This document shows positions 3,083-11,189 of a stretch of DNA of 32,368 bases, in pieces (position 1 is the stretch's first letter; every line of letters starts with the position of its first letter). A model generated the notes under the pieces. The model had not been told where the DNA came from. It worked only from the letters and a program-made list of their open reading frames with translations, and searched no databases. The DNA lies in contig JAHLWR010000031.1 in the NCBI GenBank assembly GCA_019057815.1, forward strand, positions 1 to 32,368, read 5' to 3'. Source of the stretch: Candidatus Heimdallarchaeota archaeon. Its GTDB lineage: Archaea; Asgardarchaeota; Heimdallarchaeia; Heimdallarchaeales; Heimdallarchaeaceae. A program made the position numbers and the translations under genes.

Positions 3083-3903
3083 ACACCCATAGTTAAGGGA
3101 TTCCAATCAAATCTTTTTTGTACATAACTTGTTTCAAAACCCATTTTTCTGTATAGCTCTTCAGCTCCACTGTTCTTATGGACTTGAAGGCAATAAGTCA
3201 TATTTGGTTTTGTAGCAAGTTGGTCATTTAAATAATTGGATAACATTGCAGTAGCATATCCTCGTCTTCTGAACATATTTCTTGTTCCCACACCGTATAT
3301 TCCAGTAATTTTATCATGGTTTAAAGTGCAAAAACAGCTTACATCCTTATCTGAAACATATCCGACGTAAAAATCAACACCATTATCAATTTGCATTGAT
3401 ACCATCCGAGTTATATATTTCGACAGATTCTTAGGATATTGAAAGGAATCAAAGAATATACTCACCCATTTGTCAATTTTCTTTTTAGATATGTGTTTTA
3501 TTTCTAGCGCAGGATTAGGTTTATTGAGATTGTTACTTGGTTGCCACTTCATAACTGAGATATCAACAAAGGATGGAATAAACTTTAAATCTCTCAAAAT
3601 CTTTGAGTTTCGTTGAAAATTTTCATTGTAAGGATGTTTAAGTATAAAATATTTGTTTCTATCTTCAAAAAACGAAAATGTATAATTTAGAAATTGTTCG
3701 AACTCTTCTTCACCATATGGTGTGGGCGTGATATAACTATATGTTTCAATAGAATTATTAAGAAGAAAAAACCCCAAATTGTTCTTCTTTACTTTGGAGT
3801 CTGGCATAAAAGTGTAAAATAAGTATTCGTTATTGTCTAACGTTTCTCTTTCTTGAGTTTCGTCTAAAGTGTTGGGCATTGTTCTCCAAATGTAATTTAA
3901 CAC
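3079..3903 (-). CDS. GNAT-family N-acetyltransferase
   Basis: IYGVGT..FRRRGYA acetyl-CoA-binding motif and C-terminal AEELYRKMGF. Confidence 0.88.
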   Translation of the reverse strand: MLNYIWRTMPNTLDETQERETLDNNEYLFYTFMPDSKVKKNNLGFFLLNNSIETYSYITPTPYGEEEFEQFLNYTFSFFEDRNKYFILKHPYNENFQRNSKILRDLKFIPSFVDISVMKWQPSNNLNKPNPALEIKHISKKKIDKWVSIFFDSFQYPKNLSKYITRMVSMQIDNGVDFYVGYVSDKDVSCFCTLNHDKITGIYGVGTRNMFRRRGYATAMLSNYLNDQLATKPNMTYCLQVHKNSGAEELYRKMGFETSYVQKRFDWNPLTMGV

Positions 3904-3991
3904 AGTGTAAATTAAATCTTGCTTTTATATTGATTATTTCTTCTAAAGCAAAAGACATTTAAAGAAAAAAAAATTTAGGATTTTGACGCAC

Positions 3992-4276
3992 ATGAGCACT
4001 AAAAAGAAGTTAGGAACAAATAGAGAATTTTTAAGAGAAGTTGCTAGAGGAGTGCTGGGTGTGGTTATTTTAATTATATTACTAATTGTCTGGTTAACTT
4101 GGGATGGAGTTTACCATTGGTTTTATAACTCCTTGGCACCTAATGCTAAATCAGGAACATTACTAATTATATGGTTATTATTTCTAGTTCCTTTGTTAAT
4201 CTGTGGTACTGCTCTGCTAATTTCAGGAGGAATGAAAGCTTACAAATTAGCGGTACCTCCCAAAGCAAAAAACTAG
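3992..4276 (+). CDS. Small two-TM membrane protein
   Basis: Two long hydrophobic stretches. ATG at 3992. Confidence 0.7.
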   Translation: MSTKKKLGTNREFLREVARGVLGVVILIILLIVWLTWDGVYHWFYNSLAPNAKSGTLLIIWLLFLVPLLICGTALLISGGMKAYKLAVPPKAKN

Positions 4277-4322
4277 AAAAAGGTCTTTTTACATATTTTT
4301 TTGAGAAAATATTATAATAGGT

Positions 4323-4796
4323 ATGTTTATTCTAAAGTTAATGAAACAGATAGATAAAGAAATAACTTTCACCAGTAAATGTTTTGGTTGTGGAAAAGAA
4401 AATCCTATTGGAGCTAAATTGAAGTTCTATGAAGATACTGAAAATAGCTTACAAACGACTTTTACAGCACCGGAAACTTGGGGTGGTTGGGGAGAAATAA
4501 TTCATGGAGGTTTACAGACTGTACTCTTGGATGAGATTTCTGCTTGGACTGCAATTAGCTTGTTGAGCATATATGGTTTAACGGTAAAAGCTGAAATAGA
4601 ATTCTTTCACCCTGTTTACGTAAATGAAAAACTTATCATCAAAAGTAGAATAGAGGTAGTAAAAGGAAAAGACATACAAATTTCAAGTTCTATTATGACA
4701 GAAGATGGAATGATTTGTACTAAAGGCCTCTTTACTTTTAGAACCATGCAAAAAGAAAAGTTAGAACAATTGGTTAAAAAAGATTTTAGCAGCTAG
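4323..4796 (+). CDS. PaaI family (hotdog-fold) thioesterase
   Basis: CFGCGKENPIG and IIHGGLQTVLLDE motifs. Confidence 0.9.
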   Translation: MFILKLMKQIDKEITFTSKCFGCGKENPIGAKLKFYEDTENSLQTTFTAPETWGGWGEIIHGGLQTVLLDEISAWTAISLLSIYGLTVKAEIEFFHPVYVNEKLIIKSRIEVVKGKDIQISSSIMTEDGMICTKGLFTFRTMQKEKLEQLVKKDFSS

Positions 4797-5077: not shown

Positions 5078-6571
5078 CTACTTTATTTCATACTTTTCTC
5101 CTAATTGAGGATTGAGGATATTGGAATGGAATGAACTGAAAGCGAGTGGTTCCTCCGTGTGAATAGGCATTACCTGTTTAGGGTTAATTATATTTATCAT
5201 TTCCTTTATATCTCCACTAGACGCATGACCTGAGCAGTGTAGTTGATGGTATGGATATAGATTGAAATATTTAAGCCACTCATCTACCCTTCTCTGGTCT
5301 AATTCCATTTCTTCGTCTATAGGTTCAGTTACTGATCTTATGTAGACAGATTTTTCTGGAGGTTTAATGTCGAACAAATGCTTCAATTCAAAAAAATCGC
5401 ATCTAAAAAGGTATTTTCGGGGATTAGCTACTATTTCTTCTGCTCTTACGCTGTTTGTATGATCTAAAAATTCTCTTTCCCAATTAGAGTAGTCTTGTAG
5501 TTGAATATCTTTTGGATAATTGTTATTACCTAAGACACCCCAGCCTTTTTTAGGAATAAATATACTTACTTCGTTAATCCTTGGAATGTCTTTCACACCA
5601 TTTTCTTCTAATGTTTTCAGAGCGTAAGCTTGCCTTAAACTGACTACTAATGTCCTATCGACAGATTCTGCTACCTCAATAAATGACCTCATGCGATCTG
5701 TATCTCTGATAGGGAAATTTGTCAAAATCAATCCCTCAACATCTGAAGAAAGTTTGAATAAATCTCTTTGTAAATCAAGTTCACCATAAGTTGTGGACTC
5801 ACTTATTCTTGTTCCTTCTGTTAACAGCAAGATTGGATCGTATTCAGCAGCTTTAGACACGAAAAAATCACTGTAATTAGATCTTCGACCGTGAAATCTT
5901 ATATCTCCTGTATATACTATTGCACCTTCAGAAGTTTCTATCACAAATGAGTGAGCTCCTGGAACAGAGTGATCAACAGGAAAAGCGTGAACAATGATGT
6001 CATCGACCTTAAAATCTGGCTTGAAAATATTTATATCTCGAGGGATAATTGACCCTTTATCTTTAGTTAATTTTGAGCTATCTCTCTTGCTTGGTCTAAG
6101 TTTGAAATTTTCTTTAAGTCTAGTATATTCATGAAAACCAAAAGAAGACTCTTCAAAGGTTTGTAGAATGGCCTTACTCCCTTGAGAGCAGAAAATGGGT
6201 ATGTCTGAACGAAGATATGAAATAAATCCTGCATGATCAAGATGAGGGTGAGATAGTATAATTCCGTCATATAATGGATCTTTACTACTCTCACGCATAC
6301 GATTTTCATAATCTTGTCTATAAAGACCTTCTAAATTTGGAAGTAAGCCAAGAGCAATAAAATCTTTAATATATTCCCAGCTTCTAGGACGAAGGTAGGG
6401 AGAAAAAAAACTATTCATTCTACCAAAACAGAGACCAAAATCAAGAAAAACTTTTGTTCCTTTATCTTCTAGCAGTAGTTTATTACCACCTATTTCCTTT
6501 ACAGCACCAAAAGCGGTTATATTCGTCATAACTAAAAATAAGAAGAACAAACTAATAACGTTTTTCCACAA
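5078..6571 (-). CDS. MBL-fold / beta-CASP metallo-hydrolase (RNase J-like)
   Basis: EIGGNK, LDFG, SHPHLDH, VDHS, YTGD, HCSGH and PIHTE motifs. Likely start is MTNITAFG. Confidence 0.9.
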   Translation of the reverse strand: MWKNVISLFFLFLVMTNITAFGAVKEIGGNKLLLEDKGTKVFLDFGLCFGRMNSFFSPYLRPRSWEYIKDFIALGLLPNLEGLYRQDYENRMRESSKDPLYDGIILSHPHLDHAGFISYLRSDIPIFCSQGSKAILQTFEESSFGFHEYTRLKENFKLRPSKRDSSKLTKDKGSIIPRDINIFKPDFKVDDIIVHAFPVDHSVPGAHSFVIETSEGAIVYTGDIRFHGRRSNYSDFFVSKAAEYDPILLLTEGTRISESTTYGELDLQRDLFKLSSDVEGLILTNFPIRDTDRMRSFIEVAESVDRTLVVSLRQAYALKTLEENGVKDIPRINEVSIFIPKKGWGVLGNNNYPKDIQLQDYSNWEREFLDHTNSVRAEEIVANPRKYLFRCDFFELKHLFDIKPPEKSVYIRSVTEPIDEEMELDQRRVDEWLKYFNLYPYHQLHCSGHASSGDIKEMINIINPKQVMPIHTEEPLAFSSFHSNILNPQLGEKYEIK

Positions 6572-6620
6572 TAGTCATTAAGAATAAAAAATAATAAAAA
6601 AAGCAAGAAACTTAAATTAT

Positions 6621-6854
6621 CTATTGCTCAACACAGATCATCGTCATTGTTGAACGAACATTTTCCAAATCTCTTAGATTTTGAGTCACAATATTTTTCA
6701 GAGTCGCAGTGTCCTCTGCTTCTATTTTAGCAATTAAGTCATAGACTCCGTAGAGAACATAAGCTTCTACAACATTTGGAAGTTTTAGAAGATGTTCTTG
6801 AACTTCTTGCTCTTTACCGATTTCGCTATTAATTAGTATATATGCTGTTGCCAT
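6621..6854 (-). CDS. Stand-alone Lrp/AsnC ligand-binding-domain protein
   Basis: AYILIN, LYGVYDLIAKI and VRSTMT. No HTH. GTGGT RBS-like sequence upstream. Confidence 0.9.
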   Translation of the reverse strand: MATAYILINSEIGKEQEVQEHLLKLPNVVEAYVLYGVYDLIAKIEAEDTATLKNIVTQNLRDLENVRSTMTMICVEQ

Positions 6855-6982
6855 TTGCTATACCACAGCAAAAAGAAAACAAAGCCATTTAAAAACATTT
6901 TTCCAACATAGTGAAGAACTGAAAAAAAAGAAAAGGGGAAAGGAACGATTCTAAAACTGCTGGGATTAGTTTCACTAGAAAA

Positions 6983-7966
6983 TCAAGACCTATGAAGAAT
7001 TAATTCGACTATATCAGTATCAGCTAATTCGTGATCAATTCCAACACTTTGTCCTTGAATTTCGCACGATGGTCCCCAGACTCGCGCATAACGAAATCTT
7101 CCGATGAAAGATGTATGAATTTTCTTCAACATATCTTTAATTGTAAAACCTTTAGGAAGCACAAATGGTTTTTCAAAATCAGCTTTCTTTTGAGGAGGTT
7201 TAGTATAGATTCGAACGACATCTAGAAACTTGAAAAGATTTTCCTTCAGCTTTTCAAGAGATTCTTCGTTCTTTACAGATGTTGGAAAGACATCCAAAGA
7301 GGTTATTTCTTGTAGATACTGATATTTCTCACTCGAATCTGGTAAATCACCTTTTGTGGCAATAATTCCAAGTTTATATGTGGTTTCACCATCAATTATA
7401 ATTTTAGCCTCTTCTAATTGTTCAATAAGGAAATCGTATTGTCTATCTATGTCCATGGATAAATCGATAACCATCATTACAGCATCACTTGTTCGAGCTA
7501 CTCTTCGAATTTGTCTGCTAATGTTCCAGTCTTCCTTAAAGTCTAAAAAACCAGGTAAATCAATTATCTGGATCTTGACGTTTTCATACTCACAAGTACC
7601 AGCGAGAGCTTCTCTAGTAGTGTGAAGAAAAGCTCCTGTTTTAACATTAGTATTAGTTATTGCATTCATTAGAGTGCTTTTTCCCACATTCGAAATACCA
7701 AAGAGAGCTATCCGACCATCACCTGAGGCAGGTATGTCAAAAGGATCATATGTCCTACCTTTTACTTTGGGTTTCTTTTTAGTTTCAGCTATTAATTCTT
7801 CAAGTTCCTTAATCTGTATCTTGAAAAGACCAATCTTATCTAATTTCTTGTTACGAATATCCTCGATTATATCCTCTAATTCTTGGATTAAATCGTCCCC
7901 TTCAAGATTTCTTATCCTTCTAGCAATATTAAATCGATACCATTTCAACTTGGTATGTGTACTCAT
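6983..7966 (-). CDS. DRG/OBG-family GTP-binding protein with TGS domain
   Basis: G1 GISNVGKS, G3 DLPG, G4 TKGD, and C-terminal TGS (FRYARVWG...DHELADTDIVE). GGTGA RBS upstream. Confidence 0.92.
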   Translation of the reverse strand: MSTHTKLKWYRFNIARRIRNLEGDDLIQELEDIIEDIRNKKLDKIGLFKIQIKELEELIAETKKKPKVKGRTYDPFDIPASGDGRIALFGISNVGKSTLMNAITNTNVKTGAFLHTTREALAGTCEYENVKIQIIDLPGFLDFKEDWNISRQIRRVARTSDAVMMVIDLSMDIDRQYDFLIEQLEEAKIIIDGETTYKLGIIATKGDLPDSSEKYQYLQEITSLDVFPTSVKNEESLEKLKENLFKFLDVVRIYTKPPQKKADFEKPFVLPKGFTIKDMLKKIHTSFIGRFRYARVWGPSCEIQGQSVGIDHELADTDIVELILHRS

Positions 7967-8199: not shown

Positions 8200-9660
8200 T
8201 TAGCGCGAGATCCCCTCGCTTGCCATTATAATGTAGGTTTAGGAGAAGACATTGTTATCATAGAGATTTTGACTCAGATAAATATAAATGCTTCTGTCAT
8301 ACTGTCATGTTAATATTTTCTGAGTTTATATAGGGAAAACTAAAGAAAAGTATGATGAACAAAGTCTTACGGACAGAAATAATGGAAGTGCGAAGAAATA
8401 AAGAGTTAAGCAAGCTTTGTCATCGAACTAAGAACCTATACAATCGAACAAACTTTCTGATAAAAGAAGAGTTGAAGAAAAACAGCAAATTATTATTCTA
8501 CAATGACCTAGATAGACTCTTGAAGGGTGAGGAATGTTACAAGCTTTTACCTTCTCACACCGCTCAACACACACTAAAATTGTTGTCAAGGAACTGGAAA
8601 GCTTACTTCCAAGCTCTGAAAGAGTGGAAGAGACAACCTAGCAAATTCCTCAGTTGTCCCCGTTCTCCATATTTTAAGAAACCTTCAGGGGAGACCGTAG
8701 CTATCTTTAGTAACCAGCAAGCGCGAATTGTTAATGGATGGGTAGTGTTACCACAGAAAGTTAAGTTTACTATCGAGACTCGCTTAACAGCCCAAGATAA
8801 CTTACGAGAGGTACGTGTCATCCCTAGAGGAATAGGTTATACTTTCGAGCTTGTCTATCACAAATATCTTCCAAAGGCAAAGCGAAAGAAAAAAAACAGA
8901 AAAGGTTCTATCGATTTAGGTACGATCAACCTCGTGACTTTCGTGGATAACATCGGATCGCGTCCGATTGTCATCAAGGACGAGGGAAAAGGGATAAAAT
9001 CTATCAATCAATATTATATGAAAGAAGTAAAAAAGTTACAACAGCAGTATGCGTCACAACAACACAAACAGTTACGTCAAAATAACAAGTTACATTATGG
9101 TAATCGTTTCCACCTTTATCGTCAACACTTGAGATGGAAGGTGAAAGATTGGTTACATCAAGTGAGCAATTTCCTCGTTGACCTCTGGGAAACTAGGGGT
9201 TTACACACCATTTACATCGGTTACAATCCTCTCTGGAAACAGCAACTGAGGTTGAGAAAGAAGACTACACAAATTTTTGTAAGTATTCCTTTTGAAAAAT
9301 TCATCAAAATCCTTCAATACAAGGCTGAAGAGAAAGGGATAAAGGTTGAACCTATTGAAGAAGAGTATACCTCTAAATGTAGTTTTCTAGATAATGAGTC
9401 TCCCCATAAACAGATCATGTATAAAGGTAAGAGATTGCACCGAGGACTGTTTCGTTCTGCAACAGGTGTCTCAATTAATGCCGATGTTAATGCTGCTTAC
9501 AACATTTTACTTAAAGGCGATCCGCAAGCGCTACCTAAACGTAGTGTGGGCGGGGTAGGAGGGTACGTGGTTTACCCCCTCAGAGTGAGCTATCCAGCAA
9601 TGAAACTCTAAGCAAGTGCTTGTTATATGCCATTATGACAAAATCAAATCATAAATGTAT
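8200..9660 (+). mobile_element. Non-autonomous tnpB-only IS element (ends approximate)
   Basis: Upstream hairpin GCGAG-ATCCC-CTCGC (8205-8219). 3' hairpins GAGGGTA..TACCCCCTC (about 9559-9581) and TTATGA..TCATAA (about 9633-9654). More GC-rich than the flanks. Confidence 0.65.
8352..9611 (+). CDS. tnpB: RNA-guided endonuclease TnpB (IS200/IS605/IS607 superfamily)
   Basis: KNLYN N-terminus, RuvC-I SIDLG, IYIGYN, EEEYTSKCS and RuvC-III NADVNAAYNI. No tnpA nearby. Confidence 0.93.
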   Translation: MMNKVLRTEIMEVRRNKELSKLCHRTKNLYNRTNFLIKEELKKNSKLLFYNDLDRLLKGEECYKLLPSHTAQHTLKLLSRNWKAYFQALKEWKRQPSKFLSCPRSPYFKKPSGETVAIFSNQQARIVNGWVVLPQKVKFTIETRLTAQDNLREVRVIPRGIGYTFELVYHKYLPKAKRKKKNRKGSIDLGTINLVTFVDNIGSRPIVIKDEGKGIKSINQYYMKEVKKLQQQYASQQHKQLRQNNKLHYGNRFHLYRQHLRWKVKDWLHQVSNFLVDLWETRGLHTIYIGYNPLWKQQLRLRKKTTQIFVSIPFEKFIKILQYKAEEKGIKVEPIEEEYTSKCSFLDNESPHKQIMYKGKRLHRGLFRSATGVSINADVNAAYNILLKGDPQALPKRSVGGVGGYVVYPLRVSYPAMKL

Positions 9661-9888: not shown

Positions 9889-11189
9889 GTGGAAATTACA
9901 AGAAAGTGGTTAGAAAAGTATCCAACTCGCGGCAAGAAAATTACACAACACCCTATTTCTGTTAGAATTTTTATTAGCCTAACAGCATTAGCTGCTTTAG
10001 CATTAATTGTAGTAACAGCTATTTTTTCTGAACTCACACGCCCTGATCCATGGTTTTTATGTACCTTTCTTGCCATTAATATCGTAATAAACCTATACTT
10101 TCTCGAAATTAGCATCAAACATCGAGGATCATTTCACGAGCAACCATCACTTTATTTTTCATTGGTCAATATTGTACTTTTCAACAATGTACTCATTTTA
10201 TTATTAACACCACTAATTATGATTTTAAGTTCATCAATTTATGGAATTAGACGCCCTCATGAGTTATTTTTCCCACTTTCCCCACTTAAGGGTAGTGGTA
10301 ATTAATTTTGAGGACTCTTCCCAACCCAAGAACGTTTAAGGTAGCATCGCATCAAGCAGTAGATTAGGGAGTTTCAAGCTCTGGGATTACACCTCCAACA
10401 CACAGTGTTAGCGGAGGTGAGGGGGTTCATCTCCTCCTCGGGACTCATTACTGGAGACTATGTTATTGAGAACCTTAGGCTCTCACTCCAACTCCGGGGG
10501 TAAGCAGATGACTCTGCTTTGTCTGTAGCCGTTGGCTTAAGACAGTACTTATATTAGACTTTCCTATATAAAGCTAACAGAAACATGGTAAAAATGGGGA
10601 AAAATAACCATGCTTCAATTTTTAATTTTTCCCAGCAAGTATTGGGGTTGATCGGTGCTTTTTGGGTTTTACAGTCTCCGTTAGTTGATTTATGGGAGAA
10701 TAGTTTTGATATCTTTTTAGTTTCAATTATATGTGCATTAATATACATAGTGAATAATAGAATAATGATTGGTATATTGTAAGCTTGTCATCTAAAAGAA
10801 AATTTAGAACAATTCTTCGTGGAATATCGAATGTCCAACCTGGATTGGAGACATTGATTTATTCAGCTATTTGTATGGTTATAGTTTTGGTTGATAGAGA
10901 GCTCTTTTTCTTGTTTTTCATACTCTTTTATGTGGTATTAAGAAGTAGATTAATATCAATAGCAACTTTTCAAAAAACTTTAGCAATACGCGAGATGTAG
11001 CTTGATAGCTTTGGGAATCCTCTTTTCATAATTGAAGGATTAATCAGCAAAATTAATGATGATATAAGTATTAAGAAAAAGGATGCGAACCAAATACTCA
11101 AAGATATAGAAAAGTTATCAGAGCAAATTTCGAGAATAAAATTAGAGCTAAAAAAGTTTAAAAAACCAGAAGGAGGGAAACCGAATTAG
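9889..11189 (+). pseudogene. Fragmented multi-TM sensor protein with a degenerate HisKA-like tail
   Basis: Hydrophobic fragments 9889-10252, 10585-10782 (IFNFSQ) and 10785-11000, then LDSFGNPLFIIEG plus a coiled coil to 11189. Broken by an insertion, stops and frameshifts. Directly upstream of a receiver gene. Confidence 0.6.
10253..10559. mobile_element. 307-bp non-coding, highly structured insertion flanked by a 7-bp direct repeat ATTAGAC
   Basis: ATTAGAC at 10246-10252 and 10553-10559. About 46% GC (hand count, 10261-10560) inside an AT-rich CDS. Many hairpins, no ORF, no terminal inverted repeats. Confidence 0.7.

Follow-up and report, generated by a model that had tools for sequence, protein, structure and literature searches.

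OmegaRNA-only mini-elements without a protein gene are a kind of element that is already known (PMC10055086). Elements of the IS607 family are described as having no terminal inverted repeats and a GG core (PMC6188088), and TnpB proteins with a rearranged RuvC-II site, like the one treated here, have been described in two studies (PMC10691335 and PMC10711439). TnpB cutting followed by copy-back of the element has precedent in work on IS605 and IS607 (PMC10055086; 10.1101/2023.11.20.567912). A literature search found no paper joining TnpB, Heimdallarchae and terminal inverted repeat, and Wu et al. 2022 mention neither TnpB nor MITEs.

The element described here lies in a window of 32,368 nucleotides (the whole stretch of DNA that was analysed) from a Candidatus Heimdallarchaeota archaeon, in which an earlier note, made from the sequence alone, had proposed a mini-element of the IS110 family that keeps a bridge RNA and borrows a recombinase in trans. 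Taken whole, the evidence is best explained by an internal-deletion derivative (mini) of a Heimdallarchaeaceae solo-tnpB transposon, a reading given a probability of roughly 0.85. The parts of the locus are as follows (window positions).

10259–10609, minus strand: whole insert, a non-autonomous mini-element of 351 bp made up of left end, promoter, omegaRNA and right end, the length counting the shared AT once; boundaries from 11 copies and the empty allele of a sister genome
9889–11192, plus strand: interrupted host gene for a membrane protein, 316 aa and intact in the sister genome
10610–10613, minus strand: target motif in the left flank, GCAT (V-C-A-T as family consensus), which the cognate TnpB is predicted to use as its TAM
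10610–10611 and 10259–10260: AT core at the left and the right junction, respectively
10584–10609, minus strand: left-end arm, which repeats the right end imperfectly in inverted orientation and contains two T-tract/CCCA boxes in tandem
10565–10572, minus strand: archaeal TATA box, predicted to act as promoter
10259–10544, minus strand: TnpB omegaRNA scaffold of about 286 nt, 88–91% identical to the 3' region of five tnpB copies and backed by covariation
10443–10448, minus strand: internal AUGAGU, predicted to form a pseudoknot with the 3'-terminal ACUCAU at 10259–10264
10261–10286, minus strand: right-end arm, repeating the left end in inverted orientation and doubling as the 3' stem of the omegaRNA
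10239–10258, minus strand: predicted guide in the host flank past the right end; the flank differs in every copy, and the role is assigned by analogy with TnpB

Boundaries, copies and full-length relatives

The genome of the window is designated G000 (95% complete), its sister genome G001, and the two circular Heimdallarchaeum genomes G004 and G007. The GC-rich block (46% for 10246–10559 against 33% for the genome), the lack of an ORF, the many hairpins and the insertion into a membrane-protein gene, all pointed out in the earlier note, were borne out; its limits of 10246–10559, giving 307 bp between two ATTAGAC copies taken as a 7-bp core, are replaced by those listed above. Alignment of the 11 genomic copies shows conservation from CATG at 10258–10261 to CATG at 10609–10612, and the empty allele of G001 contains a single CATG, is exactly 351 bp shorter and has an open frame of 316 aa; a second empty site of like kind, with one CATG, was found for copy C1. 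The ATTAGAC at 10246 is host sequence, present also in the G001 empty allele, and that at 10553 lies inside the element, in a linker varying between copies; random flanks give a 7-mer match like this by chance in about 10% of cases, and ATTAGAC as a core is ruled out by the alignment, the empty allele and this chance rate. Deleting the 307 bp, which according to the earlier note lets the frame run on to a stop at 10589, gives a stop after 131 aa, while deletion of the 351 bp gives 180 aa followed by a frameshift, the host gene in G000 carrying an additional frameshift beyond the insert. The interrupted gene lies directly upstream of a response-regulator receiver gene, and a Pfam search of its product gave no significant match.

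Each insertion lands in C-A-T-(G/A), adds 351 bp and repeats only a short core. A duplication of CAT (3 bp) or CATG (4 bp) was rejected, since the symmetry is centred on AT and two of the G000 copies show CATG on the left but CAT-A on the right. Folding of the ends as an archaeal bulge-helix-bulge intron was likewise rejected, its bulges being judged unfit by eye.

The DNA search for further copies that the earlier note had proposed returned, in G000, 11 near-full copies and one fragment. This family comprises six minis and five long copies (about 1.77 kb) with tnpB, the ends being common to both, and minis and full copies are present also in nine other genomes of the family. The six minis lie in different flanks and are 92–99% identical (two copies 99.4%), which shows that the mini has spread to new sites; its reliance on proteins in trans is likewise shown, and no transposase was found in any of the copies, as had been noted from the window. 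A mini consists of a left end of about 68 bp fused to the final 286 bp of the parent, tnpB having been lost.

The long copies encode a TnpB of 488–492 aa in the window-minus sense, with tnpB intact in C10, C39 and C40 and frameshifted in C26 and C30. This protein contains the active-site residues D231 (RuvC-I) and D425 (RuvC-III) and a C4 zinc finger, while the canonical position of RuvC-II is occupied by glycine and an alternative glutamate, E390, is located six residues before the zinc finger; the closest solved structures are Cas12f and TnpB. The longer copies thus carry tnpB instead of the DEDD recombinase that had been expected in them, and the assignment to IS110 is wrong because longer relatives encode TnpB, a case that the earlier note had itself named as reassigning the family. 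What stands of its proposal is a non-autonomous element with a guide RNA and with enzymes supplied in trans.

A related subfamily occurs in the circular Heimdallarchaeum genomes, where the RNA model finds the core of 19 complete minis of about 380 bp. G004 contains at least nine paired full elements and at least four paired minis, and the minis of the two circular genomes are near-identical and recently spread. Right-end fragments alone (27–50 bp), with the rest of the element missing, were observed at L044, L047 and L049 and at G000:C27:90264-90313.

Related tnpBs in genus g3 (L066–L071 and L103–L112) have a long structured leader upstream, and the end of the RNA is followed there by a variable stretch and then a run of pyrimidines complementary to a portion of the leader; the whole may be a larger or fixed unit. 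At L075–L091 lie relatives of family f11, assigned to Thorarchaeota from protein names; their end is TTCACTCAC, and some of them possess a direct repeat of about 17 bp upstream of tnpB and just past the RNA end, like the aCas1-linked group (PMC10691335); no aCas1 was seen near these f11 loci.

OmegaRNA, promoter and guide

The first ~70 nt of the omegaRNA overlap the final tnpB codons in the parent, and the hairpin block, for which an Rfam search had been proposed, has no match there at gathering thresholds. The earlier statement that almost the whole block can fold holds for a structure on the minus strand that is backed mainly by covariation; the fold of a single sequence has only a modest margin over shuffles (z = -2.05 for the minus strand and -1.02 for the plus strand). 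Covariation, also suggested as a check, is present across 26 copies, in which 98% of cells pair and two-sided changes occur in 12/66 pairs, against 2.6 in shuffles and 3–6 with slid partners, figures that represent support and not probability as the copies are related. The predicted pseudoknot is paired in 99% of cells of the 26 copies, with the compensatory change AUGAUU/AAUCAU in Heimdallarchaeum elements and G-U variants in two others, and such a pseudoknot is necessary in the IS607 TnpB RNA (PMC10711439). With TnpB relatives sharing its ends, a structured RNA ending at the right end and this pseudoknot, the element is assigned as a derivative of a TnpB OMEGA element. What it encodes is a TnpB omegaRNA, with a guide predicted to come from the flank; it is no bridge RNA, which would carry loops for target and donor within itself.

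The TATA box is located about 30 nt upstream of the tnpB start in full elements and exactly 20 nt before the first omegaRNA hairpin in minis, the latter spacing being kept in G000-, G026- and Heimdallarchaeum-type minis despite differing linkers; two further, more diverged cassettes have spacings of 22 and 24. The omegaRNA tree is poorly resolved for the G000 minis; the one grouping that it supports is that of the G026 minis with the full element of G026 (bootstrap 95). The 20-nt spacing in three lineages, together with this grouping, points to separate origins of these minis, the design having probably arisen more than once, while a shorter deletion removing half of the RNA was seen in one case only. 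Judged from sequence, selection may have favoured a promoter-driven guide RNA, and the minis look like guide-expression cassettes since the TATA box stands exactly 20 nt before the RNA in all three lineages.

The predicted guide together with the left-flank GCAT matches the element's own empty site, and no other site for RCAT plus the predicted guide was found in G000 at ≤3 mismatches. The guides of the 11 copies gave just scattered 3-mismatch matches elsewhere in G000 and no strong target; there is thus no evidence that the guides target other elements.

In the mechanism proposed, the deletion would fuse the tnpB promoter to the start of the omegaRNA, and the mini would be transcribed into a guide RNA that takes its 3' guide from the adjoining host DNA. 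TnpB from the three intact full copies could then load the mini RNA and cut the empty allele (TAM V-CAT plus guide), and repair off the filled chromosome copy would restore the element. The minis may be regarded as putative minimal cassettes, occurring in nature, for expression of a guide. For an uncharacterised clade of Asgard TnpBs they indicate where the promoter lies, where the RNA has its 5' end, where the guide boundary falls and what the TAM probably is (V-CAT), and in this way make a TnpB with a rearranged active site directly testable.

Ends of the element and candidate enzymes for its mobilisation

The ends had been described as lacking terminal inverted repeats; they are in fact imperfect inverted repeats, and the joined ends are symmetric about AT, with 16/20 positions complementary, 13 at the next best axis, and the axis lying between A and T. 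The dinucleotide AT matches at both ends and in the target. Left junctions contain C-A in 20/20 cases, as demanded by the search pattern, and T in 18/20, while the first base past the right end is G in 19/28. Such AT-centred inverted-repeat ends match neither IS605 nor IS607. In G000, a minimum of four further tnpB families (25–34% identity or less) have arm-AT-arm ends with other flanking bases, and this common design in barely related tnpB families suggests one shared enzyme, which may exchange two bases as serine recombinases do. A second, unrelated solo-tnpB element with ends symmetric about AT was observed at 8352–9652 (plus strand) of the window, about 600 bp from the insert; its tnpB (8352–9611, 419 aa) is among those with the arm-AT-arm design and belongs to a family of five in G000. 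It is somewhat more likely than not that movement proceeds as a double-stranded circle with serine-recombinase exchange across the shared AT, in which the two arms would form an attP-like symmetric junction and the enzyme would be supplied in trans.

No transposase was found inside any copy or beside tnpB at about 60 loci, which were examined by tblastn (local IS607 and Y1 proteins as queries), by clustering of neighbouring genes and through contigs annotated with Pfam. Profile searches of the circular G004 revealed no IS607 TnpA, Y1, IS110, IS630, Harbinger-type or tyrosine recombinase. Long TnpB homologues, considered as transposase fusions, proved to be HTH/AbrB-type fusions, and unpaired right ends in G004 and G007 led to no autonomous parent.

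A dedicated IS607-like, AT-specific serine transposase, encoded by an autonomous element that was unassembled or lost in the genomes examined, is somewhat less likely than not. The two-base core, the circle-compatible junction, the tandem end boxes and the right-end-like TAM are IS607 traits (PMC6188088; 10.1101/2023.11.20.567912), and MAGs often miss repeats, G000 being 95% complete; however, no such enzyme was found in the two circular genomes carrying near-identical, recently spread minis, and the IS607 TnpA elements of these genomes have other ends and unrelated TnpBs. A MerR-HTH serine TnpA in an element with the ends of the mini was not found, in assemblies that are incomplete except for G004 and G007. 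Another mini family of about 375 bp (G000:C27:57825-58204, C8:42394-42767, C1:35384-35757 and C20:11813-12187) has the ends and 3' RNA of an element with IS607 tnpA and a 652-aa tnpB at C27:145850-148590.

Cut-and-paste by a DDE or Cas1-like transposase, which would bind the terminal inverted repeats and duplicate AT, is rather unlikely. A DDE enzyme duplicating AT (2 bp) would leave an identical footprint, symmetric ends are typical of DDE-linked TnpBs, aCas1-linked Asgard TnpBs have been reported, and Thorarchaeota TnpB relatives end in TTCACTCA, the motif given for the aCas1-linked group (PMC10691335). Nevertheless, IS630 and Harbinger-type profiles have no match in seven carrier genomes, and the arms are imperfect beside the core. 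Three DDE profiles were searched and none was associated with these ends, only AT/CAT being repeated at insertions; the DDE_Tnp_1 element present has ends unlike those of the mini and a duplication of ~7–9 bp, and the solo cas1 element has 55-bp repeats of its own.

The DDE_Tnp_1 element occurs in more than 20 copies in G007 and has perfect inverted repeats containing CATG (G000:C33 ~3680-4775; L265–L282). A broken solo cas1 lies between terminal inverted repeats of about 55 bp (G000:C36 ~5630-7170; L196), and its repeat-only derivatives, abundant across the genome, form a mini-casposon-like family. Cas1 matches, examined as candidates for the mover, belong to CRISPR loci or to this separate solo-cas1 element.

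It is also unlikely, by our estimate, that all these tnpB families are moved through their arm-AT-arm ends by conserved serine recombinases of the host, encoded in Heimdallarchaeaceae as stand-alone genes. In G004, which is full of elements, in which none of the enzyme types named above was found and whose DDE_Tnp_1 family has other ends and a longer duplication, PF00239 matches two stand-alone serine recombinase genes and no others. Such proteins (~240 aa) contain a catalytic domain and a large-serine-recombinase-like C-terminal domain, have a Bxb1-type integrase-like fold, and are syntenic and ~80% identical across Heimdallarchaeaceae with the catalytic Ser kept; they are found only in this family (13/14 genomes), where the CAT-ended elements occur, and in G000 are encoded at C1:82593-83312, C24:157170-157940 and C21 near 46270-47020. 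The convergence of unrelated tnpB families on one end design also agrees with such an enzyme. Against it, the argument is one of elimination only, a single clade counts as one event, no arm-like site was seen beside the recombinase genes, a transposase may be recently lost or too divergent for profiles, and such enzymes are not expected to show low target specificity. Unlikely as well is the wider proposal that unrelated Heimdallarchaeaceae TnpB families and their minis dropped their own transposase and converged on ends read by a conserved serine recombinase of the host, a shortened form of the large-serine-recombinase type, so that RNA-guided elements would be moved by a host enzyme. Should such an enzyme indeed move the minis, it would represent a new transposition route among the closest archaeal relatives of eukaryotes, with a bearing on the way in which TnpB/Fanzor nucleases change from one transposon type to another. 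PF00589 tyrosine recombinases were not seen in G000, G001 and the circular G004, and the stand-alone serine recombinases might replace Xer.

Peel-and-paste by a Y1 TnpA of the IS200/IS605 type, with V-CAT as TAM and TCAT as right-end motif, is quite improbable. The duplication is limited to the motif, the right end forms a hairpin, Y1 genes are present in G000, G001 and G007, and PATE-like minis are known from IS200/IS605; elements of that group have sub-terminal hairpins at each end and a Y1 TnpA to match, whereas here the left end is without a clear hairpin, the ends are inverted repeats, the first base past the right end is biased to G, the Y1-type elements of G000 have different, classic hairpin ends, and no Y1 gene occurs in G004, G014 or G026. 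G007 has a single Y1 tnpA, and a mini of the Heimdallarchaeum subfamily lies immediately at the start of this gene (L173, G007:C1 ~925480-925880).

A non-autonomous IS110/IS1111 element with a bridge RNA and a 7-bp core, to which the short core, the sub-terminal inverted repeats and the absence of a long duplication give an IS1111 likeness, is extremely improbable, as the junction is not a 7-bp core, long relatives encode TnpB, PF01548 (3/31 family genomes) is absent from G000, G001, G004, G007, G014 and other close-family genomes, and internal loops seem not to vary with the flanks, 99%-identical RNAs standing in unrelated flanks that share only CATG (an informal comparison).

Comparison with known systems

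The preferred reading, an internal-deletion derivative of a solo-tnpB transposon, shares traits with several described groups. Like IS110/IS1111 elements, the Heimdall mini has a short core, a scarless-type junction and a structured non-coding RNA; unlike them, it has an RNA that forms the scaffold for TnpB and would draw its guide from the flank, and a DEDD recombinase is absent. RuvC-I reads DLG in the Heimdall TnpB and DPG in Fanzor. The RuvC-II-rearranged TnpBs (Altae-Tran et al., PMC10691335; Yoon et al., PMC10711439) contain the same glycine and alternative glutamate. The Asgard aCas1- and DDE-linked TnpB groups are Asgard-restricted, as is the Heimdall clade, and its Thorarchaeota relatives carry the reported TTCACTCA end motif, whereas no aCas1 or DDE gene was seen beside any member and the CAT-ended inverted repeats of the Heimdall clade are its own.

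Members of the IS607 family (IS607, IS1535, ISC1926 and CboIStron; PMC6188088, 10.1101/2023.11.20.567912) have a two-base core at the junctions and in the target, as here, and share with the Heimdall element the short direct repeats in the ends, an omegaRNA overlapping the right end and a fixed or biased first flank base. The Heimdall core, however, is AT and not GG, terminal inverted repeats are present, and no MerR-HTH serine tnpA is linked to the Heimdall TnpB clade in the loci seen.

The PATE-like IS200/IS605 minis of Geobacillus stearothermophilus (Meers et al., PMC10055086) are likewise protein-less, keep both ends and the omegaRNA and, like the Heimdall mini, need TnpB and a transposase in trans. 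The Heimdall minis differ from them in that the ends are inverted repeats about AT in place of Y1 hairpins, a cognate tnpA was not found, and a fixed TATA-to-RNA spacing is reached in three lineages.
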